Shown in pieces: positions 28,423-61,551 of a DNA stretch of 64,000 nt (positions are counted from its first letter, which is position 1; each line of letters starts with the position of its first letter). This stretch comes from Candidatus Omnitrophota bacterium (GTDB lineage Bacteria; Omnitrophota; Gorgyraeia; B26-G9; JBDRCZ01), in the NCBI GenBank assembly GCA_043821285.1, contig JBDRCZ010000056.1, positions 792-64,791 on the forward strand, written 5' to 3'. The position numbers were made by a program, and so were the translations under genes. The notes beneath the pieces are model-generated. The model ran no database searches, had not been told where the DNA came from, and saw only the letters and a list, made by a program, of their open reading frames with translations.

Positions 28423-31400
28423 TTGTTTAAGCCCTCCTTTCGTCAAAATTTACTGTACTCTCAAAAAACTTGCCTCTTAAACGCCTCTGCATGCAACGAT
28501 CTCAAAACGAATCAATCCCAGATATGGCGGAAAACTTTGTTTACAAGATTAAAGAACCAAAAATTACCAATGGGCGCGTATATCCTGGAGGCAAATGCTT
28601 CGGGTAAAAAAAGCCGGCAGTTACTTCTGGTAAGTAATGCCGCCTGTGTGTTAAAGACATCACCAAGCCAGGCGCTGGTGTATTTTTGCAATGCTAATGA
28701 CGGAGCGCCGATTGCTGATGCCGTGGTTTGCCTTTGGGAGAGATTTTATTCCAATGGGAATTGGCAGTGGATAGAGCAGAAAAAGAATACGGATAAAAAC
28801 GGCCTTTGTGTGTTTGATTTGAAAAGCGCTGATAACCGCAAAGAAATTTTTGCTGCCGCGGTGCGGGAAAATCAGCAGGCGTTTAGCTTAGGCAGCAGTG
28901 ATAATTACCGCAGGAATGATCTGCTGTGGAAAGTTTACGCGTTTTGCGACCGTCCGGCGTACCGGCCGAATGAAACAGTTCAGTGGAAAATTTTTGCCAG
29001 GGCTTATGACCAAGGGGGATATTCTACGCCGGCAAATAAGAAAATCAAATATCAGATTTATGATCCGCGCAATACAAAGATAAAGGAAGAAATGGTCGGT
29101 TTAAATTCCTTTGGCTCTGCCTGGGGTGAGCTTGAGCTTACAGAAGTCATGCCTTTGGGAGAGTACCGGGTGAATTTTTATAGTGTGGAGACCTTGCCGG
29201 GGGGTAAAAAAGAAGAGTATATTGGCAGTGCCGTGCTATTTCGACTGGAAGAATATAAATTGCCGGAGTTTAAGGTAAGTATCAGTACTCCCCTTGAAAA
29301 CGGCAAAAAGAAGATATTTCAAACCGGCGGCATAGTTGAGGCAAAGATTCAGGCGGACTATTATTTTGGCGGGCCGGTGGCGAATGCTGATGTTGAGGTG
29401 CTTGTTTATCAAAACCCGTTTTATCATTTTTGGTATCCAGAGCGCGATTATCCATGGTATTACAAGGATATGCAGACAAGTTATGAGCAATACCGCAATT
29501 ATCGCGGCGGTCAGATAGTAAAACGCGAGCAGATAAAGACAGATGTTCAGGGCAGGGCAATCGTAAAGTTTCAAAGCCCGCAAAACTCAGGCGGGGATTT
29601 TGAATACCGTATTGAGGCGCGGGTCACGGATTCATCACGCCGGGAGATTATTGCGCAGGACACGGTTAAGGTAACCATGCAGGGATATTATGTGTATCTT
29701 AAAAATAAGCATAATCTGATTAAGCCTCAGGATAAGGTAGAGATAGATATTAAAACCCTGGACGCAAATAACCAGCCGTATTTGGCCCAAGGCACGATAA
29801 AGGTGACCCGGGATTATTGGTTTGAAATCTGGGTTGCACCGGACGGCCGGGAAATAAAGGGCCAGGAGCTGGAACTACTGCGAAAAAAACATGAACTCTT
29901 TCCGCCGCAGACATCCTCCGGCAGTAAAGACTGGCAGTTGAAATTCCGCGGCTATGAGCAGGAGGAGATCTTAACGCGCACAATTAAAACCGACGAGCAG
30001 GGCGAGGCAGAGTTTAGTTTTGTGCCGGAACACGAAGGCTATTACTGTGTTAACTGGTACAGTAAAGATAAGCGAAAAAATCCGATCAATGCTCAGACAA
30101 CTGTCTGGGCCGCGGATAATCAGACAACCGAGCTTGGCTACCGGCATGGAGGTGTTGAGATTATTATAGATAAAGACACATTTAAAAGCGGGCAGACCGC
30201 GCCAATAATGTTAAGTGTGCCGGTAAACGACAGATATGTTTTATTCAGCGTAGAGGCGGATGATTTTTACAGCTATGAGCTTTTGCATTTAAAGGGCACG
30301 GTTAAATTTATTGAACTGCCGATTAAAGAGTCTCATGTGCCGAATATTTTTCTCAGCGCGGTAATGGTCAGTGACCAGCAGATATTTATCGATACAAAGC
30401 AGGTGGTTGTGCCGCCGGTTGAGCATTTTATTGATGTTGCGGTAAACGCGGATAAAGCTCAGTACCAGCCGCAGGAATCCGGCAAGTTTTGGGTAATGAC
30501 AAAAGATCACAAAGGTAATCCTGTATCCTGCGAGTTAGCATTAGGGGTGGTGGATGAGTCTGTATATTATATCCAGTCGGATTACGACCTAGACCCCAGA
30601 GAGTTTTTCTACGGGCAGAAGCGGTCTGCTCATATCCAGACCCAAAGCACATTTAATCAGAAAAGTTATATTTGTCTGGTAAGAGGCGCGAATGAACAGC
30701 TTGTTGACGTGCGGTATAAAGGTAACCGGCAGGATTGGAATGAGGAAGGAGATGTAGGTGGTAAATATTCTGCGGTGTCATTAGATGGTCGTTTAGGTTT
30801 TGATGCCTCTACCCTGAGAGAGGTTTGTAAAAGCGAAGTAGCTGTAGAAGAAATGAGTGGCATTAAAAAATGTATTTCTGCCGGCTCGATGGACTTTTAT
30901 GATGATAAAGCAAAAGAGGATTTTGAGCAAAAACCAGTTATAGACAAAAATGGCATTTTTTCACCTTCACAGGGGGCCTCAGCTGCGGTGCAGGTTAGAA
31001 GTGATTTTCGTTCGACAATATTCTGGCAGCCGGATATAGTTACGGATAAAAACGGCCGCGCAGAGGTTGATGTTAATTTTGCGGATTCTTTAACCGCATG
31101 GAAGGCATGTGCACGGGTCTTAAGCCCGGTTAATCAGTTTGGTATTGCTTACACTTCAGTGCGGACTAAAAAACCTTTGATTGTCCGGCTGCAGGCGCCG
31201 CGCTTTTTTGTTGTTGGGGACATGGCAGCAGTATCCGGTGTGATTAATAATAATACGGATGAGAATCTTACGGTCACGCCGGTTTTAAAGGTTAAGGGTC
31301 TGGTTATCAGCGGGCTCTATTCCGGCGGCAGGGTCGTAAAGGGTGAGCAGGGTCCGGTTAAGGTAAAGGCTAATAGCCAAGAGCGGGTTGACTGGGCAAT

Positions 31401-33036
31401 ATCCGTGCAGGAAGTTGGAACGGCAAAAATACAGGTAACTGCACAAGCTGACAAATACGCAGATGTCATGGAAAGGACATATCCTGTATATGAACACGGC
31501 ATGGAAAAATTTATTGCCAGAGCCGGTAAACTGCGCGCGGATGAGGCTGTCTTAACCCTTGATCTGCCTAAAGAGCGCGGTAAGGGGTCAACGATAATGC
31601 AGGTGCAGCTTAGCCCGAGCATGGCAGTTACCATGCTCGATAGCCTGCCGTATTTGATTGATTATCCTTACGGGTGCGTGGAGCAGACCATGAGCCGGTT
31701 TTTGCCGGCAGCAATTTGTTTAAATACGCTTAAAGATTTAGGACTGGATCCGGATACGGTTATGCGTAAAATTTTCGGCGGTATTGAGCCGGCATATACG
31801 GAAAAGACACACAGTAAAGGAAAACAGGATTTAAATAAATTAAATGACATGATTAAAAAAGGCATGGAGCGTTTATATGATTTTCAGCATTCAGACGGCA
31901 GCTGGGGCTGGTGGAAAGAAGGAGAGAGTGATCATTTTATGAGCGCTTATGTTCTCTGGGGGCTTTCGTTAGCGCATCAGGCGCGGGTGGAGGTAAAAAG
32001 AAATATTATTGAGCGCGGAGCCGCTTATTTAGAAAAAGAGATCGTAGAGGAAGAGGACAATTATGATCTTCAGGCATGGATACTGCACGCATTATCTAAT
32101 TACCGCGCGGTCTTTGATAAAGGCCGGGCTAAGGAATTTGAGCAAAAGGCATTGGATAATCTTTGGAAAAACCGGGACAAGTTAAACGCTTATACCCGGG
32201 CACTGCTGTCCTTGTCCGCGCATAATTTCAAAGACGAAGAAAAGGCACGAATTCTGGTACGCAATCTGGAAAACGGGGTAAAGACAGATGATACCCCGGA
32301 CACTTCAGCGATCCAGCGCGGCAGCCAAAAGTCAGAGGAGGCAGTTATTGGTACCGCACATTGGGGAGAGGATGGTATCTACTGGCGCTGGTCAGACGGC
32401 GGGGTTGAGGCAACCGCGTTTGCTTTAAAGGCGCTGGTGACAATAGACCCTGAGAATAAGCTGATTGAGCCGGTAAGTAACTGGCTGTTAAAAAACCGGC
32501 GCGGCAGTCAGTGGAAAAGTACCCGGGATACAGCGATTGTAATCATGGCCTTTAATGATTATTTAAAACAAAGCGGCGAAAGGATTGAGACGGTAATCAC
32601 GATTGAGGCAAAGAATAATTATGAATACCTTGTGTTTGAGGATTTAAAGCCAGCGGGTTTTGAAGCAGTACAGGTAAAAAGCGGGGAGCCGATGTATGCA
32701 AAAGAGCTAAAATCTGCGGCAGTTGAACGGAGTTTTGGCAATACAGTGAAGAAAAAATCCGCGGTTTTAGAATCTAATTCCTTAACCGGTGTACCGTTAT
32801 CTGGTCAGGAGGATACGGAATATACCGGCCGGACCCGCTGGGTATACCAGGAACTACGCGACCGCAAGACAGCCTTATTTATCGATAAACTGCCGGAAGG
32901 GGTTTGGGAAATACGCTATGAATTAAGGGCAGAGGTTCCGGGCAGGTTTCATGTCCTGCCAATAACCGGGTACGCGATGTATGTGCCGGAAATCCGGGCA
33001 AACGGCCAGGAGATTAGGGTTGAGGTGAGTGAATAA
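28423..33036 (+). CDS. Alpha-2-macroglobulin family protein with intact thioester (CVEQ)
   Basis: MG domains, YPYGCVEQTMSRF thioester motif, C-terminal receptor-binding-like domain. TTG start. No signal peptide detected. Confidence 0.85.
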   Translation: MFKPSFRQNLLYSQKTCLLNASACNDLKTNQSQIWRKTLFTRLKNQKLPMGAYILEANASGKKSRQLLLVSNAACVLKTSPSQALVYFCNANDGAPIADAVVCLWERFYSNGNWQWIEQKKNTDKNGLCVFDLKSADNRKEIFAAAVRENQQAFSLGSSDNYRRNDLLWKVYAFCDRPAYRPNETVQWKIFARAYDQGGYSTPANKKIKYQIYDPRNTKIKEEMVGLNSFGSAWGELELTEVMPLGEYRVNFYSVETLPGGKKEEYIGSAVLFRLEEYKLPEFKVSISTPLENGKKKIFQTGGIVEAKIQADYYFGGPVANADVEVLVYQNPFYHFWYPERDYPWYYKDMQTSYEQYRNYRGGQIVKREQIKTDVQGRAIVKFQSPQNSGGDFEYRIEARVTDSSRREIIAQDTVKVTMQGYYVYLKNKHNLIKPQDKVEIDIKTLDANNQPYLAQGTIKVTRDYWFEIWVAPDGREIKGQELELLRKKHELFPPQTSSGSKDWQLKFRGYEQEEILTRTIKTDEQGEAEFSFVPEHEGYYCVNWYSKDKRKNPINAQTTVWAADNQTTELGYRHGGVEIIIDKDTFKSGQTAPIMLSVPVNDRYVLFSVEADDFYSYELLHLKGTVKFIELPIKESHVPNIFLSAVMVSDQQIFIDTKQVVVPPVEHFIDVAVNADKAQYQPQESGKFWVMTKDHKGNPVSCELALGVVDESVYYIQSDYDLDPREFFYGQKRSAHIQTQSTFNQKSYICLVRGANEQLVDVRYKGNRQDWNEEGDVGGKYSAVSLDGRLGFDASTLREVCKSEVAVEEMSGIKKCISAGSMDFYDDKAKEDFEQKPVIDKNGIFSPSQGASAAVQVRSDFRSTIFWQPDIVTDKNGRAEVDVNFADSLTAWKACARVLSPVNQFGIAYTSVRTKKPLIVRLQAPRFFVVGDMAAVSGVINNNTDENLTVTPVLKVKGLVISGLYSGGRVVKGEQGPVKVKANSQERVDWAISVQEVGTAKIQVTAQADKYADVMERTYPVYEHGMEKFIARAGKLRADEAVLTLDLPKERGKGSTIMQVQLSPSMAVTMLDSLPYLIDYPYGCVEQTMSRFLPAAICLNTLKDLGLDPDTVMRKIFGGIEPAYTEKTHSKGKQDLNKLNDMIKKGMERLYDFQHSDGSWGWWKEGESDHFMSAYVLWGLSLAHQARVEVKRNIIERGAAYLEKEIVEEEDNYDLQAWILHALSNYRAVFDKGRAKEFEQKALDNLWKNRDKLNAYTRALLSLSAHNFKDEEKARILVRNLENGVKTDDTPDTSAIQRGSQKSEEAVIGTAHWGEDGIYWRWSDGGVEATAFALKALVTIDPENKLIEPVSNWLLKNRRGSQWKSTRDTAIVIMAFNDYLKQSGERIETVITIEAKNNYEYLVFEDLKPAGFEAVQVKSGEPMYAKELKSAAVERSFGNTVKKKSAVLESNSLTGVPLSGQEDTEYTGRTRWVYQELRDRKTALFIDKLPEGVWEIRYELRAEVPGRFHVLPITGYAMYVPEIRANGQEIRVEVSE

Positions 33037-33349: not shown

Positions 33350-33490
33350 AATGAATGACGATACCAACACATTACTTGAATCATTGTTGAGAGTATCTCG
33401 TTTAAAGTCGGTGGGAAATGTTTTCACCAAATTGCTGGAGAAAAATAGTATTACAAAACGATGTTTTGCTACGAGAGGTGAATATGCATG
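33350..33490 (+). CDS. small hypothetical ORF (46 aa) overlapping the start of the hypA-like gene
   Basis: Its stop overlaps the ATG of the next gene (ATGCATGA). No recognisable family. Confidence 0.25.
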
Positions 33491-33726
33491 AATCACATTT
33501 GATTGAACCGATAATCAAGGGAATCGCGGAACACGCAGAAAAAGAAGGAGCGCGTGTCGTATCTAGGGTAAGGTTAAAAGTCGGAGAGTTTACCGGGGTG
33601 CGTGAGGAATCATTCCGCGAGACATTTGCTGTTTTGGCAAAAGGGACGGTGCTTGAAAATGCCGAGCTTGAAGTTACCTTTTTTCCTGGGTCAAGGATAG
33701 AGGTGGTATCATTCGACATAGAATAG
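33484..33726 (+). CDS. HypA-like hydrogenase nickel-incorporation protein lacking the zinc-finger domain
   Basis: Begins MHE (the nickel-binding N-terminus of HypA) and follows HypA spacing (RVRLKVGEFTGV). It ends without any CxxC pairs. Confidence 0.55.
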   Translation: MHESHLIEPIIKGIAEHAEKEGARVVSRVRLKVGEFTGVREESFRETFAVLAKGTVLENAELEVTFFPGSRIEVVSFDIE

Positions 33727-33811: not shown

Positions 33812-33936
33812 TCCAAATGACAAATCCCAAATGACAAATGGAAAAACTTAAATGTTTTTCTTTTTAAAGATTGAAATATTTAAAGATTCATTTGCCTGTC
33901 TGTCGCAGGCAGGGATTTTGTCATTTGGAATTTGAC
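33812..33936. promoter_or_regulatory. Inverted-repeat / palindromic operator-like region (TCCAAATGACAAATCCC ... GGGATTTTGTCATTTGGA; TGTCA-N9-TGACA) upstream of the hypC-hydE fusion
   Basis: Visible in the sequence, 90-210 bp upstream of 34026. Confidence 0.35.
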
Positions 33937-34025
33937 ATTGCCGGTATATTGCCTTATCAGGCAGTATGCATGTTAATTATAATGAGTTATTAGATGTTGA
34001 TTATATGTTATGGAGCATGAATGCC

Positions 34026-35327
34026 ATGTGTTACGCGATTCCGGGAAAAGTGGAGGAAATATACGAGAAAATAGTTATCGTTGATTATTTTGGCGAGAAA
34101 AAAAAGGCGATTAATGAATTTTACGATATCCGTAAAGGTGATTATATTTCTGCTCAGGGCGGATATGTGATAAAAAAGGTGGACCCGGTTGAGGCAGAAG
34201 GTATTTTAGCTGCATGGCATGAGCTTTTTTTTGAGCTTCAGGATATTGACTTACGTCTTTCGCGATTGGATCTTAAAGAGAAAGGTATAGATAGGAAACT
34301 CGCGGTTATTCTGGACCATGCCTTAGAAAATATACCGCTCTCAAAAGAAGAGCTCGTGTATTTGTTTAACTTAAGCGAGCGCGGGGGAATTGAGATTGTT
34401 TGTAAAACTGCCAATTTTCTCCGCCAGAAATATTTAAAAAATTCCTGTTGCGTGCACGGGATAATAGAAATTTCGAATTATTGTACACAGGGTTGTATGT
34501 ATTGCGGCATTTCTTACCATAACCGCCATCTTTTACGCTACCGCATGAGCCCGGAGGAAATAGTCGAAACCGCAATTGAGGCAATAGATGGATTTGGGTT
34601 TAAGGCACTGGTGTTACAAAGCGGGGAAGATGTAGATTACCCGGTAGATAAACTGGCAGATATTATAAGAAAAATAAAGGAAAAAGGCGGGGTCCTTATT
34701 TGTATAAGTTTTGGCGAAGTCGGAATAGCTGGACTTGAACAATTATACGATGCCGGGGCACGGGCGCTGTTACTGCGCTTTGAAACATCAAATCCAGATA
34801 TTTATAAGAAACTGCATCCAAAGCGAAGTTTGGATACACGGCTTGGGCATCTTCATCAGGCCGCAAATATGGGGTATCTGATTATGACCGGCTCGCTTAT
34901 TGGTTTACCGGATCAGACAAAAGAAGATATTATTGAGGATATATATAAGGTTAAGGAGTTGGGGGCAGAAATGTATTCTTTTGGTCCGTTTTTGCCGCAT
35001 CCACAGACCCCCTTATCTAATAATCAGCCCCCAACCGAAGATGAGATGCTGAAAACTCTATCTATTGCCAGGCTCGTTGACCCGGCCAATGCCAAGATTT
35101 TAGTAACTACGGCCTTTGAGACTTTAAGCGCTAATGCGCGTAGAATGGGGCTTCTTTCCGGAGCTAATTCCCTAATGCTCAATCTGACCCCGCTTAAATA
35201 CAGAAAACAATATTCTATTTATCCAAACCGGGCATATTGCCGTGAAACAATTGGCAATCAGGTTGAAAAAACTATTGACCTGCTTAAATCTCTGGGGCGG
35301 GCACCTACGGATTTGGGAGTTAGTTAA
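34026..35327 (+). CDS. hydE: HypC/HupF-domain fused to [FeFe]-hydrogenase maturase HydE (radical SAM)
   Basis: N-terminal MCYAIPGKV (HypC signature with Cys2) through EAEGILAAW, then continuous in frame with a HydE-like radical SAM region (CTQGCMYCG, RYRMSPEEIV, LVLQSGED, GPFLPHPQTPL). GGAG RBS lies 12 nt upstream of the ATG at 34026. Confidence 0.75.
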   Translation: MCYAIPGKVEEIYEKIVIVDYFGEKKKAINEFYDIRKGDYISAQGGYVIKKVDPVEAEGILAAWHELFFELQDIDLRLSRLDLKEKGIDRKLAVILDHALENIPLSKEELVYLFNLSERGGIEIVCKTANFLRQKYLKNSCCVHGIIEISNYCTQGCMYCGISYHNRHLLRYRMSPEEIVETAIEAIDGFGFKALVLQSGEDVDYPVDKLADIIRKIKEKGGVLICISFGEVGIAGLEQLYDAGARALLLRFETSNPDIYKKLHPKRSLDTRLGHLHQAANMGYLIMTGSLIGLPDQTKEDIIEDIYKVKELGAEMYSFGPFLPHPQTPLSNNQPPTEDEMLKTLSIARLVDPANAKILVTTAFETLSANARRMGLLSGANSLMLNLTPLKYRKQYSIYPNRAYCRETIGNQVEKTIDLLKSLGRAPTDLGVS

Positions 35328-35337
35328 GGTTAATTTT

Positions 35338-35994
35338 ATGAAAGAAAGCGGTAAGAAAAGAGACAAGTTTTCTTTAGAGACGATTAAGCGTTTGGGTCTA
35401 TATCTGCGTAATTTAAAAAAGCTTAAAGCACAAGATATAGACATTATCTCTTCTGATAAATTAACACAATTGCTTAATGTTGCCCCTACGCAGTTTCGAA
35501 AGGATCTGTCCTGCTTTGGCGGGTTTGGGAAGCGGGGAGTGGGATATAATGTAGAAAGATTGATTGAAGAGATAGAAAATATTTTAGGGGTAAATAAAGA
35601 ATGGAAAATTATCATTGTTGGTGCAGGAAGGCTGGGCAGTGCCCTTTTGGGATATGATGGATTTTCTAAGTTTAATATAAAAATAGCCTATGCTTTTGAT
35701 GTCAGCGAGAAGAAGGCGGGGAAGCACAGAAAAGGAATCAAGATTTATAATTTAAAACACATAAAAGAGGTTATAAAAAATAATAATATTAAGATTGCAA
35801 TAATCACTACTCCTGCGGAAGCAGCACAGGATATAGCAGACAAATTAACGTCTACCGGGATAAAGGGCATTTTAAACTTTACCCCGATAATTTTGCAGGT
35901 GCCTAAAGATGTGCTGGTATCTAATGTGGATATGGCTTGCGAGCTTGAGAGTTTAATATTCTTTGCCAAGCAAAGATATATTGGAGATGAATAA
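35338..35994 (+). CDS. rex: Redox-sensing transcriptional repressor Rex
   Basis: Winged-helix N-domain (TIKRLGLYLRNL...QFRKDLSCFGGFGKRGVGYNV) and Rossmann motif IIVGAGRLG. Confidence 0.85.
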   Translation: MKESGKKRDKFSLETIKRLGLYLRNLKKLKAQDIDIISSDKLTQLLNVAPTQFRKDLSCFGGFGKRGVGYNVERLIEEIENILGVNKEWKIIIVGAGRLGSALLGYDGFSKFNIKIAYAFDVSEKKAGKHRKGIKIYNLKHIKEVIKNNNIKIAIITTPAEAAQDIADKLTSTGIKGILNFTPIILQVPKDVLVSNVDMACELESLIFFAKQRYIGDE

Positions 35995-36575
35995 TGGATG
36001 AGGTTACCGGGATAATTCTTGCCGGCGGCAAAAGCACAAGAATGGGCAAAGATAAATCTTTTATCCCGGTGTATGGACGGCCGATTATCGAAATAGTTAT
36101 AGATAAAATATCGTCTTTAACTAGTCAATTATTGATTATAACCAATAAACCGTGTCTTTACCGTAAATATGGCATAAAAACAAAAAAGGACATACTTCAC
36201 GAACACGGCTCTTTAGGCGGGATATATACGAGTTTAGTTTTCTCAAAAACAGTGTATAATCTTATTACCGCCTGTGACATGCCTTTTATAAACATGGAGG
36301 TTGCGCGTTATATGATTAGGATTATGCCGGGGTATGATTGCGTAGTTTTACGATGGCGAAGGAGATTAGAACCTTTATTTGCGATATATTCTAAACATTG
36401 TATCCGGACAATAGAAGACCAGCTAAAAAAGAAAAATTTAAAGATTAGTGATATATTTTCGAACTTAAAGACAAAAATAATCATGGGAAAAGAGATTAGG
36501 CGGTTTGATCCATGTGGCCGTTCTTTTGTAAATATAAATACACGGCAAGATGCCTTGCCATTTTCTGATAGCTGA
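35994..36575 (+). CDS. mobA: Molybdenum cofactor guanylyltransferase
   Basis: GIILAGGKSTRMGKDK nucleotidyltransferase motif and about 190-aa size. Confidence 0.75.
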   Translation: MDEVTGIILAGGKSTRMGKDKSFIPVYGRPIIEIVIDKISSLTSQLLIITNKPCLYRKYGIKTKKDILHEHGSLGGIYTSLVFSKTVYNLITACDMPFINMEVARYMIRIMPGYDCVVLRWRRRLEPLFAIYSKHCIRTIEDQLKKKNLKISDIFSNLKTKIIMGKEIRRFDPCGRSFVNINTRQDALPFSDS

Positions 36576-36632: not shown

Positions 36633-36821
36633 CGTATTGCGTATTGAGTATCGAGTATTGAGCATAAAAACTAAAAGGATGACAACAAGAAAATTGCCTC
36701 CGGTGATAACCTTCTGCGATTTTCAGCGGTTAGGAAAGTGTTTTACTTATGCCCGCAAGGGTATAAGGGTATACTTTCCTATACCATAAAAACGCAATAC
36801 TCACGACACAATACACAATAC
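36633..36821. mobile_element. MITE-like element bounded by imperfect inverted termini (GTATTGCGTATTGAGTATCGAGTATTGAGC ... GCAATACTCACGACACAATACACAATAC)
   Basis: The termini are reverse complements of each other. A solo terminus copy (GGGTATTGCGTATTGAG) lies at 45445-45464. Confidence 0.4.
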
Positions 36822-36836
36822 AAAAACTATGATAAT

Positions 36837-37319
36837 ATGTATAAAGTTGCTGTGCTTACAATAAGTGACAGGTGCTCAAAAGGGGAGCAAGAGGATAAAA
36901 GCGGTAAAGTTCTCCATGAGATTGCTGTAGGAATGCCCGCGCAGGTTATAAAATACGAAATTGTTCCGGATGAGCCGGAACAAATTAAAGAGAAACTTAT
37001 CGCCTATTGCGACGAGTTGAAAGTGGATTTAGTGCTTACTACCGGAGGCACGGGTTTAGGTTGTCGGGACTTTACTCCTGAGGCAACGGAAGAAGTTATC
37101 GAAAGAAAAGTCCCCGGCATACCTGAGGCAATGCGTGTTATTTATATAAATATCACAAAACATGCAATGCTATCCAGGGGAATTGCCGGGATCAGAGGAA
37201 AGACTTTGATTGTTAATTTACCGGGCAGCGCTAAAGGCGCCAGGGAGTCTTTGGAAGCAGTGTTCGAAGGTTTACGGCATGGTTTAGAAATGATCGAGGG
37301 AAAAGAACATCATGGCTAA
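36837..37319 (+). CDS. mogA: Molybdopterin adenylyltransferase MogA/MoaB family
   Basis: VLTISDR, LVLTTGGTG motifs and about 160-aa size. Confidence 0.8.
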   Translation: MYKVAVLTISDRCSKGEQEDKSGKVLHEIAVGMPAQVIKYEIVPDEPEQIKEKLIAYCDELKVDLVLTTGGTGLGCRDFTPEATEEVIERKVPGIPEAMRVIYINITKHAMLSRGIAGIRGKTLIVNLPGSAKGARESLEAVFEGLRHGLEMIEGKEHHG

Positions 37320-38682
37320 AGTGATTGATCAGGAACAGATTGGGGATATATTAAAAGAGACAAAAAATCCATCTTTTTCTGAAACCTATGCGGTTATTAC
37401 AAAAGCCGAAGAAAAAAAAGGTCTGAGCCAAAAAGATACCGCGGTTTTATTAAATTGTCAGGATGAAAAAATAATCAAAAATATATTTGATCTGGCAAAA
37501 AAGATAAAGAATGACATATATGGGGAAAGACTGGTGTTATTTGCGCCTTTGTATGTCAGCAATGCCTGCAACAATAACTGCCTTTATTGCGGTTTTCGCC
37601 AGGATAATAAAAATTTTAAAAGAACGACTTTAAACTTTGAGGAAATAGAGCAAGAGGTTAGAATGCTTGAGTCGAGAGGGCATAAGCGCGTTCTTTTAGT
37701 TTCCGGAGAAGCCGTAGGTTTTGATTATTTGCAGAAGGCAATAAAAACAGTTTACCAGACGAAAAACGGGACTGGCGAAATAAGACGGGTTAACGTTAAT
37801 TGCGCCCCCCTTACGGCTGATGAGTTTAAAGAATTAAAAAAATGCGGTATTGGAACTTATCAGCTTTTTCAGGAGACATACCACCGGCCGACTTATACGA
37901 AAATGCATCCTTCCGGACCAAAGGCCGATTATAATAATAGAATTTCTGCGATTGACCGGGCAATTGCCGCGGGGATTGATGATGTGGGAATTGGTGTCTT
38001 ATTTGGTTTATATGATTATCGGTTCGAGATTCTGGGGTTACTTTCGCACATTGCTCATTTAGAAAAAAATTTTGGCATTGGCCCGCATACAATTTCCGTA
38101 CCGCGTCTTGAGCCGGCAGCAGGTTCGGTTGTTTCCGTAAAGCCGCCGTATCCGGTAAGCGACCAGGAACTAAAAAAGATTGTTGCGATTTTGCGTTTAG
38201 CGGTTCCTTATACCGGTATTATTTTATCAACCAGAGAGAATAAAGAGTTAAGGAATGAACTTTTTTCTTTTGGCGTTTCTCAAATCAGTGCGGGTTCTTC
38301 TACCCAGCCGGGCGGATACTCCAAAGAAAAAGGCCTGGAACAATTTTCTTTATCGGATAAGCGTTCAATGTCAGAGGTTATTATTGACGTTTTAAAATTG
38401 GGCTATCTGCCAAGTTTTTGTACAGCCTGTTACCGTCTTGGCCGCACCGGTGAAGATTTTATGGCATTTGCGAAAAAAGGTGAAATACATAAATTTTGCC
38501 TGCCGAATTGTCTGCTTACATTCAGTGAGTATCTTACGGATTACGCAACTAAAGAGGAAAAGATATTAGGAGATAAGGTTATTCGTGAACAGATGGAGTT
38601 TATTCCGCTAACTTCTCTACGCAGAAAAATAGAACACAAATTAGATCTGGTACAATCCGGCAAACGCGACTTATATTTTTAA
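37312..38682 (+). CDS. hydG: [FeFe]-hydrogenase maturase HydG (radical SAM tyrosine lyase)
   Basis: N-terminal radical SAM CNNNCLYCGF. C-terminal CTAC-x22-C (C-x2-C-x22-C) auxiliary-cluster motif that distinguishes HydG from ThiH. Confidence 0.85.
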   Translation: MAKVIDQEQIGDILKETKNPSFSETYAVITKAEEKKGLSQKDTAVLLNCQDEKIIKNIFDLAKKIKNDIYGERLVLFAPLYVSNACNNNCLYCGFRQDNKNFKRTTLNFEEIEQEVRMLESRGHKRVLLVSGEAVGFDYLQKAIKTVYQTKNGTGEIRRVNVNCAPLTADEFKELKKCGIGTYQLFQETYHRPTYTKMHPSGPKADYNNRISAIDRAIAAGIDDVGIGVLFGLYDYRFEILGLLSHIAHLEKNFGIGPHTISVPRLEPAAGSVVSVKPPYPVSDQELKKIVAILRLAVPYTGIILSTRENKELRNELFSFGVSQISAGSSTQPGGYSKEKGLEQFSLSDKRSMSEVIIDVLKLGYLPSFCTACYRLGRTGEDFMAFAKKGEIHKFCLPNCLLTFSEYLTDYATKEEKILGDKVIREQMEFIPLTSLRRKIEHKLDLVQSGKRDLYF

Positions 38683-38862: not shown

Positions 38863-39138
38863 ATGTTAGTTACTGTTAAACTATCTGCACCACTTCAGAA
38901 ATTTACAAAAGGCCGGGCGGAGGTCCGGGCATCCGGGAAAAGTATCCGGGAATTGATAAATAATCTTGAAGAAAAAATCCCGGGGATAAAAGAGAAAATA
39001 TGCGATGAGACGGACCGGCTGCATAAGTTCATCAATATTTATGTTAATGAACAAGACATTAGATTCTTAGAACATGCAGAAACAGTGCTGAAAGATGGGG
39101 ATGAGGTATTAATCATTCCGGCGATTGCCGGCGGATGA
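38863..39138 (+). CDS. MoaD/ThiS-family sulfur carrier protein (C-terminal GG)
   Basis: 91 aa, beta-grasp pattern, ends in GG. Confidence 0.7.
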   Translation: MLVTVKLSAPLQKFTKGRAEVRASGKSIRELINNLEEKIPGIKEKICDETDRLHKFINIYVNEQDIRFLEHAETVLKDGDEVLIIPAIAGG

Positions 39139-39237: not shown

Positions 39238-40053
39238 GTGGGATTAGATCAGGCGCAAATCGAGCGGTATTCAAGGCAGATTATCTTGCCAAATGTTGGC
39301 CGGCGGGGACAGGAAAAAATATTTAAATCAAAAGTGCTGATTATTGGTGCCGGAGGTCTGGGTTCACCTTCTGCCTTGTACCTTGCCTCAGCCGGCGTGG
39401 GGAGTCTGGGTATTGTTGACTCAGACGAGGTAGAGCTTAATAACCTGCATAGACAAGTTTTACATTCCACAAAAACTATCGGCATCGCAAAAGTAAAATC
39501 TGCTAAGCATAGACTTATGTCACTAAATCCTGATGTAAAAACTGTTACTTACAATACCAGAGTTACCGCAGATAATATTTCTAATCTGATTAAGGGTTAT
39601 GATATAATCGTAGATGCATCTGATAATTTCCCCACGCGATATTTAGCAAATGATGTTTGTGTTCTCTCAAAGAAACCATTTTCGCACGGCAGTGTATGCG
39701 AATTTGGCGGGCAGGTAATGACAATTGTCCCGGGGAAAAGTGCCTGTTACCGGTGTTTATTCCCTGAACCCCCGCCACCCGGACGCATGCCCAATAGTCA
39801 GGAAACAGGTATACTTGGTGTGGTTCCGGGTATAATTGGTACAATTCAGGCAAATGAAGTATTAAAATATATTTTAGGTATCGGCAATCTTCTAATTGGC
39901 AGACTGCTGGTGTTTGATGCGCTTAATTCTTCTTTTCGAGAGGTGAAAGTCAAAAGAGATAAAAATTGCATGGTGTGTAGTGAAAAATATCATGATAAGA
40001 AAAAAAAGATAATGCCACGGATTTACACGGATTGGACACGGATAAAAAAATAG
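39238..40053 (+). CDS. moeB: MoeB/ThiF-family E1-like adenylyltransferase
   Basis: GTG start. Rossmann motif IIGAGGLGS and CxxC pair (CYRC). The 3' end of the ORF reads through a family-D repeat (codons MPRIYTDWTRIKK). Confidence 0.8.
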   Translation: MGLDQAQIERYSRQIILPNVGRRGQEKIFKSKVLIIGAGGLGSPSALYLASAGVGSLGIVDSDEVELNNLHRQVLHSTKTIGIAKVKSAKHRLMSLNPDVKTVTYNTRVTADNISNLIKGYDIIVDASDNFPTRYLANDVCVLSKKPFSHGSVCEFGGQVMTIVPGKSACYRCLFPEPPPPGRMPNSQETGILGVVPGIIGTIQANEVLKYILGIGNLLIGRLLVFDALNSSFREVKVKRDKNCMVCSEKYHDKKKKIMPRIYTDWTRIKK

Positions 40054-40625: not shown

Positions 40626-41517
40626 GTAAACAGATTGTAGAGAAGCAGAGAAAGCTCGGTTGGGGAAAAGCCGTGGTTGAGAATCTGGCAGTTGATTTAC
40701 AAAAAGAATTTCCAGGTATACAGGGGTTTTCCGCGCAAAACCTCTGGCGTATGAAACAATTTTATCAGACTTATAAAAATAATGAAAAACTCTCACCAAT
40801 GGTGAGAGAAATAGGCTGGACGCATAATATGGTAATTATGATGAAGTGTAAAAATGATAACACGCGACAGTTTTATATCGGCATGACTAAAAAGTTCGGT
40901 TGGACTAAAAATATTCTTATTCATCAGATCGAAAATCAATCTTACGAGAAAACGTTTCTTAACCAAACTAATTTTGAAAAGACTGTTCCTATTAAAATAC
41001 GTAATCAGGCGAAACTAGCTGTTAAGGATGAATACACCTTTGATTTTCTTGAATTGGGCGATGAACATCTTGAAAACGAGCTTGAGCGGGCGCTCACGGC
41101 GAATGTGCGGAGATTTTTGCTGAGATGGGCGGCTATTTTTGTTTTGTTGGCAATCAGCATAGAATAGAAATAGACGGTAGAGAATATTTTGTAGATATTC
41201 TCTTGTATCATCGAAAATTACGGTGTCTGGTGGCAGTTGAGCTCAAGATTGGTGATTTTAAGCCTGAGTATGCAGGCAAAATACAATTTTATCTTTCCGC
41301 GCTTAATGATAGGAGTACGTTGAAAGAAGAAAATCCGGCTATTGGGATTATTATTTGTAAAAGCAAAAGCCGGACAGTAGTTGAATACGCCCTGAAAGAT
41401 GTTAATAAACCGATAGGTGTTTCAACCTATACGATCAAAAAATCTTTACCTAAGACGTTAAAGAAATATTTACCTTCATCAAAGGAATTGGCGGCAAGCG
41501 TAACGGTGGTGAAATGA
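40580..41517 (+). pseudogene. DUF1016/YhcG PD-(D/E)XK nuclease family gene, 5'-truncated and with a frameshift near 41140
   Basis: Frame 2 reads YWDIGKQIVEKQRKLGWGKA...FLL. A 1-nt shift is then needed to continue EMGGYFCFVGNQHRIEIDG...IGVSTY (the YhcG-like core). Confidence 0.6.
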
Positions 41518-60480: not shown

Positions 60481-61551
60481 ATGAGTGATGCAAAAATACA
60501 AACACTTTGCGGGTTTAGTCGTACTCAAGGCTGTGCATCCAAGATGCGCCGGGCTTTGCTTAAAAAATTAGTTAGTGTTTTGCCCGGAACGATAAAGAAA
60601 AATAAAGACAAAATAATATCTGATTATGATTCATTTGATGATGCGGCTATTTATAAACTAACTGATGAAATTTCCATAGTTTTTACGGTTGATTTTATGA
60701 CACCGGTTACCAATGATCCGGAAAGGTTTGGCCACATTGCCATAGCTAATGCGCTAAGTGACATTTATGCAAAAGGAGCCGCGCCATGTCTTGGCTTAAA
60801 TGTACTTGGCTTTCCTCAAGAAAAAATGGATTTAACAATTGTTGAACGAATTCTAAAAGCTGGCTTTGCTAAGGCTGAAGAAGCAAATGCACATATAGTT
60901 GGCGGACATACGCTAAATATATCTGAATTTATTTATGGTTTGGCGGCAATAGGTTTTGTTAAAAACAATGAGATTATTCTTAACTCTGGAGCATATAAAG
61001 GGGATGTATTGTTACTTACAAAACCACTGGGGACGAACGTAGTATTAACATTAGCAAATAGAGCAGGCGTTGATGTAGGTTCGGATATTCTTGAAGAATG
61101 TCTTGATTCAATGTGCCAGCTAAATATTATACCAGACATGTTAATGAAAGAAGCCAAGATCAGTGCGTGCACGGATATTAGCGGATATGGATTTATCGGC
61201 CATTTAGCACAGATGTTAGAAGCGAGTAAACAGAAAGCAATAATTTATTCTGCCCAAATCCCTGTAATTAAGAAATCTTTAGATTTTTATAATATGGCCT
61301 ATCGTGCTTGTTCGGTAGAAGCAAATAAAGCGGATTATTCAGATTATGTTCAGTTTACTAATTCAGTGTCACCATCTTTAAGAGATTTATTATTCGATGC
61401 CCATACTTCAGGAGGATTACTAATGTCAGTTCCGGAAAAAAATAGCAAAGTACTTTTAGAAAAACTTCAGCAAAATAAATTTATACATGCTGCTATTGTT
61501 GGCAGGGTTATAGGACTTGATGAACAGGAAAGTTTAATCAAAATAGAATAG
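60481..61551 (+). CDS. selD: Selenide, water dikinase (selenophosphate synthetase), Cys-type
   Basis: N-terminal GFSRTQGCASK (Cys at the Sec/Cys position) and AIR-synthase-like fold motifs across the full length. Confidence 0.85.
   Translation: MSDAKIQTLCGFSRTQGCASKMRRALLKKLVSVLPGTIKKNKDKIISDYDSFDDAAIYKLTDEISIVFTVDFMTPVTNDPERFGHIAIANALSDIYAKGAAPCLGLNVLGFPQEKMDLTIVERILKAGFAKAEEANAHIVGGHTLNISEFIYGLAAIGFVKNNEIILNSGAYKGDVLLLTKPLGTNVVLTLANRAGVDVGSDILEECLDSMCQLNIIPDMLMKEAKISACTDISGYGFIGHLAQMLEASKQKAIIYSAQIPVIKKSLDFYNMAYRACSVEANKADYSDYVQFTNSVSPSLRDLLFDAHTSGGLLMSVPEKNSKVLLEKLQQNKFIHAAIVGRVIGLDEQESLIKIE

Follow-up and report, generated by a model that had tools for sequence, protein, structure and literature searches.

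A stretch of 64,000 nucleotides from a Candidatus Omnitrophota bacterium (NCBI GenBank assembly GCA_043821285.1, contig JBDRCZ010000056.1, positions 792 to 64,791 of the forward strand), referred to below as the window, carries a gene in which a HypC domain is fused to a HydE-like radical S-adenosylmethionine (SAM) domain. The reading to which we lean, at somewhat better than even chances, is that its product is a two-domain [NiFe]-hydrogenase maturase, which would be fed by HydG and would hand a mononuclear Fe-CO/CN unit via Cys2 of its HypC domain to the hydrogenase large subunit. That the fusion and HydG serve an adjacent [NiFe]-hydrogenase is suggested by the conserved gene neighborhoods, by the coupling to HydG, by the separate HydE found in loci with [FeFe] genes, and by residue changes in the radical SAM domain.

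The active sites of [NiFe]- and [FeFe]-hydrogenases are both iron centers with CO and CN ligands. The former is built by HypA-F and the latter by HydE, HydF, and HydG, and the two machineries are believed to be unrelated. The occurrence of a conserved protein that joins one part of each machinery, with its gene next to HydG and [NiFe] genes, suggests a crossing of the two pathways. An earlier note on this DNA, made from the sequence alone, had known of no described fusion of HypC with HydE; the full-text literature searched, subscription-only literature aside, indeed held no description of such a fusion, or of HydE or HydG acting on [NiFe] enzymes. We regard the fusion as a variant of known maturases with a new, testable wiring.

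The fused protein and its two domains

The gene is an unbroken frame from the ATG at 34026 to the stop codon at 35325-35327, and its 433-residue product opens with MCYAIPGKV, so that the earlier description of a single uninterrupted frame with a cysteine right after the initiator methionine was borne out. A longer open reading frame (ORF), starting 20 codons upstream at 33966, was given by the mechanical ORF call and by the NCBI protein P0001 (453 residues, Candidatus Omnitrophota). The start at 34026, which the earlier note had also used, is probably the true one, because homologs begin at Met-Cys and are mostly 431-438 residues long, shorter than the annotated P0001, and because GGAG lies 10 nt upstream of it. 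Met-Cys were the first residues of every sequence displayed from our alignment of 42 homologs. We also notice that the public start of P0001, 20 codons too early, would bury the N-terminal cysteine of the HypC domain.

The N-terminus was recognized by Pfam HupF_HypC (PF01455; residues 1-64, 46.3 bits, E 4.8e-12) well above the gathering score of 28.5, whereas the NCBIfam HypC model TIGR00074 gave 39.4 bits, below its cut-off of 48; the HypC assignment of the earlier note was thus upheld by one profile and not by the other. Residues 1-67 aligned end to end with residues 1-68 of HypC from Thermococcus kodakarensis (PDB 2z1c; E 1e-9). The HypC motif M-C-[LIV]-[GA]-[LIV]-P is present as MCYAIPG, with tyrosine instead of an aliphatic residue at position 3, and all seven residues (M1-C2-Y3-A4-I5-P6-G7) are invariant in the 42-sequence alignment. 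The OB-like barrel and helix of the family were matched by strands at residues 2-52 and a helix at residues 54-67 of an AlphaFold model. The conserved histidine of HypC (H51 in Escherichia coli, within VIVHTGFAI in T. kodakarensis), which helps to hold the Fe unit, is replaced by Q44, as seen both in the alignment with 2z1c and in that of the 42 homologs, where Q44 is invariant; in fused members at greater distance, the position is taken by T, Y, or A.

With the HypC/HybG/HupF chaperones (E. coli HypC, T. kodakarensis HypC) the fusion thus shares the N-terminal MC-x-[AG]-[IVL]-P with Cys2, the barrel, and the helix, and its gene takes a HypC-like place, directly after [NiFe] structural genes, HycI, and HypA. 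Unlike these chaperones, it is covalently tied to a radical SAM enzyme, has the invariant glutamine in place of histidine, and scores under the TIGR00074 cut-off. HypC works in complex with HypD, and no HypD partner gene lies near the fusion.

The earlier note had proposed structure prediction of the two-domain protein. The AlphaFold model, computed with 42 homologs in the alignment, had a mean predicted local distance difference test score (pLDDT) of 87.5 and a predicted template-modeling score (pTM) of 0.84, and showed a five-strand barrel plus helix (residues 2-67), a low-confidence linker (pLDDT about 54-65 for residues 61-90), and a confident (beta/alpha)8 barrel. Within the linker, F68, F69, D75, and S79 are invariant among the 42 sequences. 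The second barrel superposed on HydE of Thermotoga maritima (TmHydE, PDB 3iiz) with a template-modeling score of 0.92 and a root-mean-square deviation of 1.5 Å.

Pfam Radical_SAM matched residues 147-305 with 67.7 bits, and the Pfam BATS match was weak (23.4 bits). Residues 100-427 matched the full length of TmHydE (E 1e-67, about 38% identity), and the best NCBIfam match was the HydE model TIGR03956 (residues 101-408, 241.2 bits), the cut-off of which, 254.6, was not reached. The three cysteines of the CX3CX2C motif (C153, C157, and C160) and a C-terminal LGRAPTDL motif are invariant in the 42-sequence alignment. Just before the xxE[FI]SN.C strand, every HypC-fused protein carries C-x-H-G, where canonical HydE has [H/Y/F]-x-R-[G/A]. 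The 30 C-x-H-G sequences formed one split in a neighbor-joining tree of 129 HydE-like representatives (bootstrap 70/100); they comprise 23 HypC-fused proteins, 3 that are N-terminally truncated, 1 fragment, and 3 that are truly unfused (P0140, P0143, and P0204). Further members of this clade scored 219.9, 235.2, and 244.7 bits on TIGR03956, whereas the two stand-alone canonical HydEs that were scored, from loci L048 and L030, reached 330.7 and 359.6 bits.

To locate these differences in the active site, an alignment mapped to TmHydE numbering was used, in which the 30 clade members were compared with 94 canonical sequences. The canonical group was defined by an arginine at the R54 position, so the R54 column is not an independent test, whereas T134 and R155 were not used for grouping. 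Kept in both groups are the radical SAM cysteines, Q107, S136, R159, E161, M224, T268/T269, and M291. The upper-pocket equivalents in the fusion (M316 for M224, M384 for M291, T361/T362 for T268/T269, and R251 for R159) were conserved in 23-29 of the 30 members. In HydE, the retained residues are located around the pocket for SAM and complex-B and around the methionine relay (PMC10114646). In the lower site, by comparison, R54 is replaced by histidine and H52 by cysteine in 30/30 members, R155 by glycine or alanine in 30/30, and T134 by phenylalanine in 24/30, with threonine in none; T134 was found in 90/94 and R155 in 87/94 of the canonical sequences. The proposed dimerization site of TmHydE is lined by R54, T134, and R155 (PMC11826987; see also PMC10114646); together with T269, these residues touch the cyanide ligands of the two Fe(I) units there (PMC11826987). 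Since the upper-pocket residues are conserved while R54, T134, and R155 are replaced and a cysteine and a histidine are gained, the clade keeps the first half of the HydE active site and has its second half rebuilt with potential metal ligands.

Judged from its sequence, the radical SAM domain is a paralog in a separate clade and not the canonical [FeFe] maturase HydE. In common with HydE (T. maritima, PDB 3cix and 7o1o; TIGR03956) the fusion has the fold, the CX3CX2C motif, the residues of the complex-B/SAM pocket, and the partnership with HydG. Unlike HydE, it stays under the equivalog cut-off (241 vs 254.6), groups in its own clade, has changed lower-site residues, bears an N-terminal HypC domain, and has no auxiliary-cluster cysteines; moreover, it is encoded with [NiFe] genes instead of HydA and HydF and coexists with a canonical HydE in [FeFe] loci. 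The "full HydE-type radical SAM enzyme" of the earlier note therefore holds for the fold and for the full-length match to TmHydE, but not for a protein of a separate clade that scores below the TIGR03956 cut-off and has a rebuilt dimerization site.

The read-through between the two domains, which the earlier note wished to see confirmed, is real, and the same fusion is present in related genomes of several phyla. In a search of 5.8 billion proteins, both Pfam domains were found in at least 115 of the best 120 clusters at 90% identity, and relatives are encoded in 483 stretches of a one-genome-per-species collection. A sequencing or assembly artifact was ruled out by the identical architecture in these protein clusters and in 82 of 83 loci. 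Most carriers are Omnitrophota, joined by members of Margulisiibacteriota/Saganbacteria/WOR-1, Brevinematales, Caldatribacterium (Atribacterota), Auribacterota, Elusimicrobia, and WOR-3. When 1.84 billion representatives were searched exhaustively, more distant fused members came up at 35-56% identity, as did two HypC-HydE-HydG triple fusions, P0122 (906 residues; L084 10001-12721) and P0130 (881 residues; L087 10001-12646). Databases name these proteins variously HypC, HydE, biotin synthase, or "radical SAM protein"; if they were taken for HydE, a capacity for [FeFe] maturation would be credited wrongly to these genomes.

Fusions of consecutive H-cluster maturases have precedents in HydEF of Chlamydomonas, which joins canonical [FeFe] maturases, and in P0145, a protein of 803 residues in which a canonical HydE with the H-L-R-G signature is joined to HydG in the absence of HypC. 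Neither of these includes a domain of the [NiFe] pathway. Several HydEs with the canonical signature have other N-terminal extensions of about 100 residues (P0166, P0175, P0192, and P0240; P0147, P0168, and P0194); in one type, a conserved cysteine stands within G-x-x-C-[TA], and this extension may be another small carrier domain. A stray copy of the first 14 codons of the fusion (MCYAIPGKVEKIEW, followed by stops) was noticed at about 8528 in locus L044, some 1.5 kb upstream of the intact gene, and may be a remnant of a duplication.

Hydrogenase genes around the fusion in relatives

For the analysis of gene neighborhoods, all ORFs of 83 loci were clustered and the representatives were confirmed with Pfam. 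The upstream side was counted in the 69 non-redundant loci for which 2.5 kb or more of upstream sequence was available. The large subunit of a [NiFe]-hydrogenase and/or the protease HycI lies upstream on the same strand in 63 of these 69; two more have the [NiFe] large subunit elsewhere in the locus, and three loci and the window have none. The large subunit retains the metal-ligand motifs RICGICSCGH and DPCISCSAH, and has a C-terminal extension. Two layouts were observed. Type A, seen in 21 loci, begins with a membrane-bound [NiFe]-hydrogenase of the Mrp-linked kind, resembling the group 4g enzymes reported for Omnitrophota, after which come HycI, a short HypA, the fusion, Rex, and HydG. Type B, seen in 44 loci, begins with a 3b-like [NiFe]-hydrogenase of four subunits (a Fer4_22 subunit, an FAD/NAD subunit, a small subunit, and a large subunit), after which come HycI, the short HypA, the fusion, Rex in some cases, and HydG. 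Of 61 informative loci, 44 contain HydG, and 35 have it at most 3 kb downstream of the fusion.

The [NiFe] linkage extends to distant members of the clade. The triple fusion P0122 stands behind 3b genes and HycI, and P0130 lies within a [NiFe] cluster that has the short HypA. The gene order around P0141 is HycI-HypA-HypB-fusion-HydG, and P0136 is preceded by a separate HypC gene and followed by HydG, with 3b genes convergent on the opposite strand. Even the unfused clade member P0140 is located directly after the C-terminus of a large subunit and before HydG.

By comparison, HydA was found within 10 kb in 8 of 92 loci, and an [FeFe] HydABC cluster in 7-8 loci. Three loci (L028, L042, and L048) contain [FeFe] HydABC followed by HydG and a separate unfused HydE, besides the fusion, and in L030 a partial HydF, HydG, and HydE are arranged upstream of the [NiFe] genes. 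Traces of HydF in the 92 loci amount to this partial gene and to an 85-residue remnant in L039. The latter (L039 12757-13014) is an ORF just past HydG that matches HydF at its very C-terminal end only (48% identity to the HydF of L030); its HC motif has become SC, and it looks like a decayed HydF. Seven [FeFe] large subunits (L028, L040, L042, L048, L052, L054, and L068; e.g., L048 16036-17814) read TSCSPGW or TSCSSAW, whereas the textbook H-cluster motif is TSCCPxW, and each of these HydA genes is flanked by genes for a Cache-HAMP histidine kinase and a receiver-domain protein.

HypD, HypE, and HypF gave no tblastn match at E 1e-3 or better when the E. coli proteins were used as queries against 1.57 Mb of sequence (the 92 loci, in a 10 kb range, and the window), and motif scans of the loci were likewise negative. 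The positive controls, E. coli HycI, HypA, HypB, and HypC, matched 59, 33, 3, and 67 loci, respectively. No stand-alone HypC was found in 89 loci scanned; L092, outside those 89, has a stand-alone HypC of 76 residues beside the fusion. Genomes of Omnitrophota from Ace Lake were reported to have one identifiable hydrogenase type each, which was 3b, 3d, or 4g [NiFe], or A3 [FeFe] (PMC8542988); this fits a [NiFe] role of the fusion, in so far as those genomes carry it.

Some further observations concern the radical SAM genes of these loci. A HydG variant of about 499 residues, with the C-terminal four-cysteine motif SFCTAGYRCGRTGKC-(14)-C (CX5CX5CX14C) replacing CX2CX22C, scored 463 bits on the HydG model and was found in L001 (11981-13480) and about 23 other loci, mostly of the Mrp-linked type, and also in L030 (597-2114). 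We considered whether the HydGs encoded beside the fusion form a lineage apart from those encoded with [FeFe] genes, but there was no clear split (52% identity between the groups and 55-68% within, with 4 [FeFe]-side sequences). A radical SAM gene by the 3b cluster of L092 was judged by eye to be unrelated and to resemble an RlmN-type rRNA methyltransferase.

Proposed role of the fusion in hydrogenase maturation

In the pathway that we propose, the neighboring HydG would cleave tyrosine and build a mononuclear Fe(CO)2(CN)(cysteinate), as in H-cluster synthesis. The HydE-like barrel would hold this unit in its conserved upper pocket, where the SAM-derived 5ʹ-deoxyadenosyl radical would free an Fe-CO/CN fragment from the cysteine. 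In the lower pocket, which is devoid of the Arg/Thr/Arg lining and has the invariant cysteine and histidine, the fragment would stay mononuclear, because the site thought to pair two Fe units is rebuilt. The tethered HypC domain may then accept the fragment on Cys2 and insert it into the apo form of the large subunit, after which the short HypA would supply nickel and the HycI protease would trim the C-terminus. Such a route may involve a change of ligands from (CO)2(CN) to (CN)2(CO), and it could either replace HypD, HypE, and HypF or only supplement them, for example as a source of CO. The stronger version, in which HydG and the fusion make up a complete tyrosine-derived radical SAM pathway to the Fe(CN)2(CO) of the [NiFe] site and replace HypD, HypE, and HypF altogether, we put forward only tentatively, as the less probable outcome.

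Transfer from HydG through the HydE-like domain and Cys2 of HypC to the [NiFe] large subunit is the likely direction, and HypC feeding HydE for H-cluster synthesis is less likely, because the HydE domain is non-canonical, the fusion keeps the company of [NiFe] genes, HycI, and HypA, and the [FeFe] loci have a separate canonical HydE. The suggestion of the earlier note that HypC carries a HydG-derived iron unit fits the triple fusions P0122 and P0130, whereas the hand-over to HydE for the H-cluster that it envisaged is the less likely part. Its placement of the radical SAM part in [FeFe] H-cluster maturation does not agree with the conserved neighbors, which are a [NiFe]-hydrogenase, HycI, and HypA and not an [FeFe]-hydrogenase or HydF.

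Several points weigh against a [NiFe] maturase fed by HydG. The ligand sets differ, as the product of HydG has 2 CO and 1 CN and the [NiFe] site 1 CO and 2 CN, and no conversion step is evident. The HypC domain departs from HypC in its sequence, given the glutamine at the position of the conserved histidine and the TIGR00074 score of 39.4 vs 48. The support for the clade is moderate, as indicated by the bootstrap of 70/100 in a simple neighbor-joining tree. The predicted model tells little about the contact between the domains; because the confidence of the linker is low, we claim no fixed contact between Cys2 and the barrel. Moreover, the window itself is without a hydrogenase and has an alpha-2-macroglobulin gene upstream of HypA, so here the link to [NiFe] genes comes from relatives only. 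In 7-8 loci, [FeFe] genes are placed between the fusion and HydG, where a role in H-cluster synthesis is possible, and other parts of these genomes may encode HypD, HypE, HypF, HydF, or an [FeFe]-hydrogenase.

Another explanation is that the two domains have independent jobs and were joined because their genes happened to be neighbors. HypC would serve [NiFe] maturation together with HypD, HypE, and HypF from another part of the genome, the radical SAM domain would be the ordinary HydE of the cell, acting on an [FeFe]-hydrogenase whose genes also lie at a distance, and the fusion would ensure co-expression only. Both domains are recognizable members of their own superfamilies, the upper HydE pocket is intact, [FeFe] HydABC lies downstream of the fusion in 7-8 loci, and hyp genes are often scattered in genomes. 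However, a separate canonical HydE is present in the [FeFe] loci (331-360 bits for the two scored), so the radical SAM domain of the fusion would be redundant there, and R54, T134, and R155 of the dimerization site are lost throughout the clade. Most loci, moreover, have no [FeFe] gene or HydF within 10 kb and yet have their own HydG, triple fusions occur inside [NiFe] clusters, and the fusion persists across several phyla. Taken together, this makes independent jobs unlikely. We consider decidedly improbable a built-in carrier in H-cluster maturation, with HypC passing the HydG synthon to HydE, as the earlier note had it, or standing in for the HydF scaffold. HypC, HydE, and HydG are physically tied in the triple fusions, HydF is absent from nearly all loci (with traces only in L030 and L039), and some canonical HydEs have other small cysteine-containing N-terminal domains, all of which speaks for such a carrier; but the conserved neighbors are the [NiFe] large subunit, HycI, and HypA rather than HydA, those loci that do have HydA also carry a canonical unfused HydE, and the site proposed to build the di-iron unit is dismantled in the clade.

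A further alternative stays within the [NiFe] pathway: HydG and the fusion might supply only the CO ligand, or free CO and CN, to ordinary HypCDEF, as an anaerobic counterpart of HypX. Where anaerobes obtain the CO for their [NiFe] sites is an open question in the field, the association with [NiFe] genes fits this idea equally well, and a separate HypC adjoins the fusion in L092. HydG is also able to release free CO and CN, according to work cited in PMC9431212. On the other hand, no HypD, HypE, or HypF lies within 10 kb in the 92 loci, though HycI, HypA, HypB, and the fused HypC do, and the covalent attachment of HypC to a radical SAM barrel suggests that an iron fragment is transferred rather than a free gas. 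A supply of CO alone thus seems rather improbable to us. HypX itself is the aerobic synthase of the CO ligand of [NiFe]-hydrogenases; it derives CO from formyl-tetrahydrofolate and acts with HypCDEF. It could be a functional parallel, as an enzyme dedicated to a diatomic ligand of the [NiFe] iron, with an unrelated fold and chemistry.

For the [NiFe] maturase that we favor, the closest working analogy is NifB with a fused NifX-like domain, where a radical SAM enzyme of metallocofactor synthesis is joined to a small domain thought to hold the cluster product before hand-over (PMC10114646). There is no relation in protein families, cofactor, or placement of the fused domain, and the comparison, being an analogy only, says nothing about membership.

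If the proposal is true, both hydrogenase maturation systems share an iron-carbonyl-cyanide synthon, and [FeFe] chemistry has been reused, in a cut-down form, for [NiFe] enzymes. There would then be a tyrosine-derived source of CO, and perhaps of CN, for the [NiFe] enzymes of strict anaerobes, in which the origin of CO has long been an open question. The fusion would also offer a natural "half-reaction" variant in which HydE can be studied before iron dimerization, and a much smaller gene set for heterologous production of [NiFe]-hydrogenases. The idea is directly testable, because one carrier of the fusion (locus L060), Caldatribacterium inferamans SIUC1, is available in pure culture with a closed genome, CP189974, and produces H2 (PMC13408713).

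The gene in its window

The positions of the fused gene, its parts, and its neighbors are collected in Table 1.

Table 1. Coordinates of the fusion gene, its domains and motifs, and the genes around it (window numbering)
Feature	Position	Strand	Details
HypC-HydE-like fusion gene	34026..35327	+	433 residues plus stop; HypC domain, linker, HydE-like radical SAM domain
HypC/HupF domain	34026..34226	+	residues 1-67; Met-Cys start (C2), five-strand beta-barrel, C-terminal helix, Gln44
Linker	34227..34322	+	residues 68-99; conserved FFELQ..DLRLS stretch
HydE-fold radical SAM (beta/alpha)8 barrel, C-x-H-G clade	34323..35324	+	residues 100-433
Clade signature C142-V143-H144	34449..34457	+	replaces TmHydE H52-I53-R54; Cys and His in all 30 clade members
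Radical SAM cluster motif C153-X3-C157-X2-C160	34482..34505	+	reads CTQGCMYC; aligns to TmHydE C63/C67/C70
Short HypA	33484..33726	+	80 residues, MHE start; N-terminal Ni-binding half, without Zn-finger domain
Rex redox-sensing repressor	35338..35994	+	NCBIfam Rex 263 bits
HydG, tyrosine-cleaving radical SAM enzyme	37312..38682	+	TIGR03955 520 bits vs cut-off 312
MobA	35994-36575		molybdenum cofactor; interleaved with Rex and HydG
MogA/MoaB	36738-37319		molybdenum cofactor; interleaved with Rex and HydG
MoaD-like protein	38863-39138		molybdenum cofactor; interleaved with Rex and HydG
MoeB	39238-40053		molybdenum cofactor; interleaved with Rex and HydG

The short HypA upstream of the fusion matched Pfam PF01155 with 55.9 bits over profile positions 1-68 of 112 alone, fell under the NCBIfam HypA cut-offs, and is 76% identical to the 80-residue gene that precedes the fusion in relatives. 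This "half HypA" is conserved as a gene cluster (c3) in 52 related loci (e.g., L015 4977-5219), where it typically comes directly ahead of the fusion. The spacer between HypA and the fusion is unusually long in the window, at about 300 bp compared with about 40 bp in relatives. It contains a 23-nt inverted repeat (33816-33838 / 33917-33939, 91% complementary, 78 nt apart) accompanied by the tandem CCAAATGACAAAT, which may be a small inserted element or an operator.

The genes after the fusion are, in order, Rex, MobA, MogA/MoaB, HydG, the MoaD-like protein, and MoeB. The Rex gene cluster (c7) was found in 37 loci, usually directly after the fusion, and Rex is the gene usually seen between the fusion and HydG. 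HydG of the window lies 2 kb downstream of the fusion and has the C-terminal CX2CX22C motif, which reads CTACYRLGRTGEDFMAFAKKGEIHKFC. The interleaving with molybdenum cofactor genes was seen in this genome alone, and in relatives Rex is followed directly by HydG.

No hydrogenase structural gene or remnant was found in the 64-kb window, and tblastn with 20 gene families from the related loci recovered the short HypA alone. Where relatives have the hydrogenase operon, the window has a gene for a very large (1537 residues) bacterial alpha-2-macroglobulin at 28423-33036. A gene of the AIR-synthase family at 60481-61551 was examined as a hidden HypE and was ruled out, since it scored 289.6 bits as SelD (TIGR00476) and 54 bits as HypE. 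Downstream of MoeB, the gene for a YhcG-type PDDEXK nuclease (DUF1016) is broken into two ORFs that overlap (40673-41167 / 41125-41517), probably by a frameshift.

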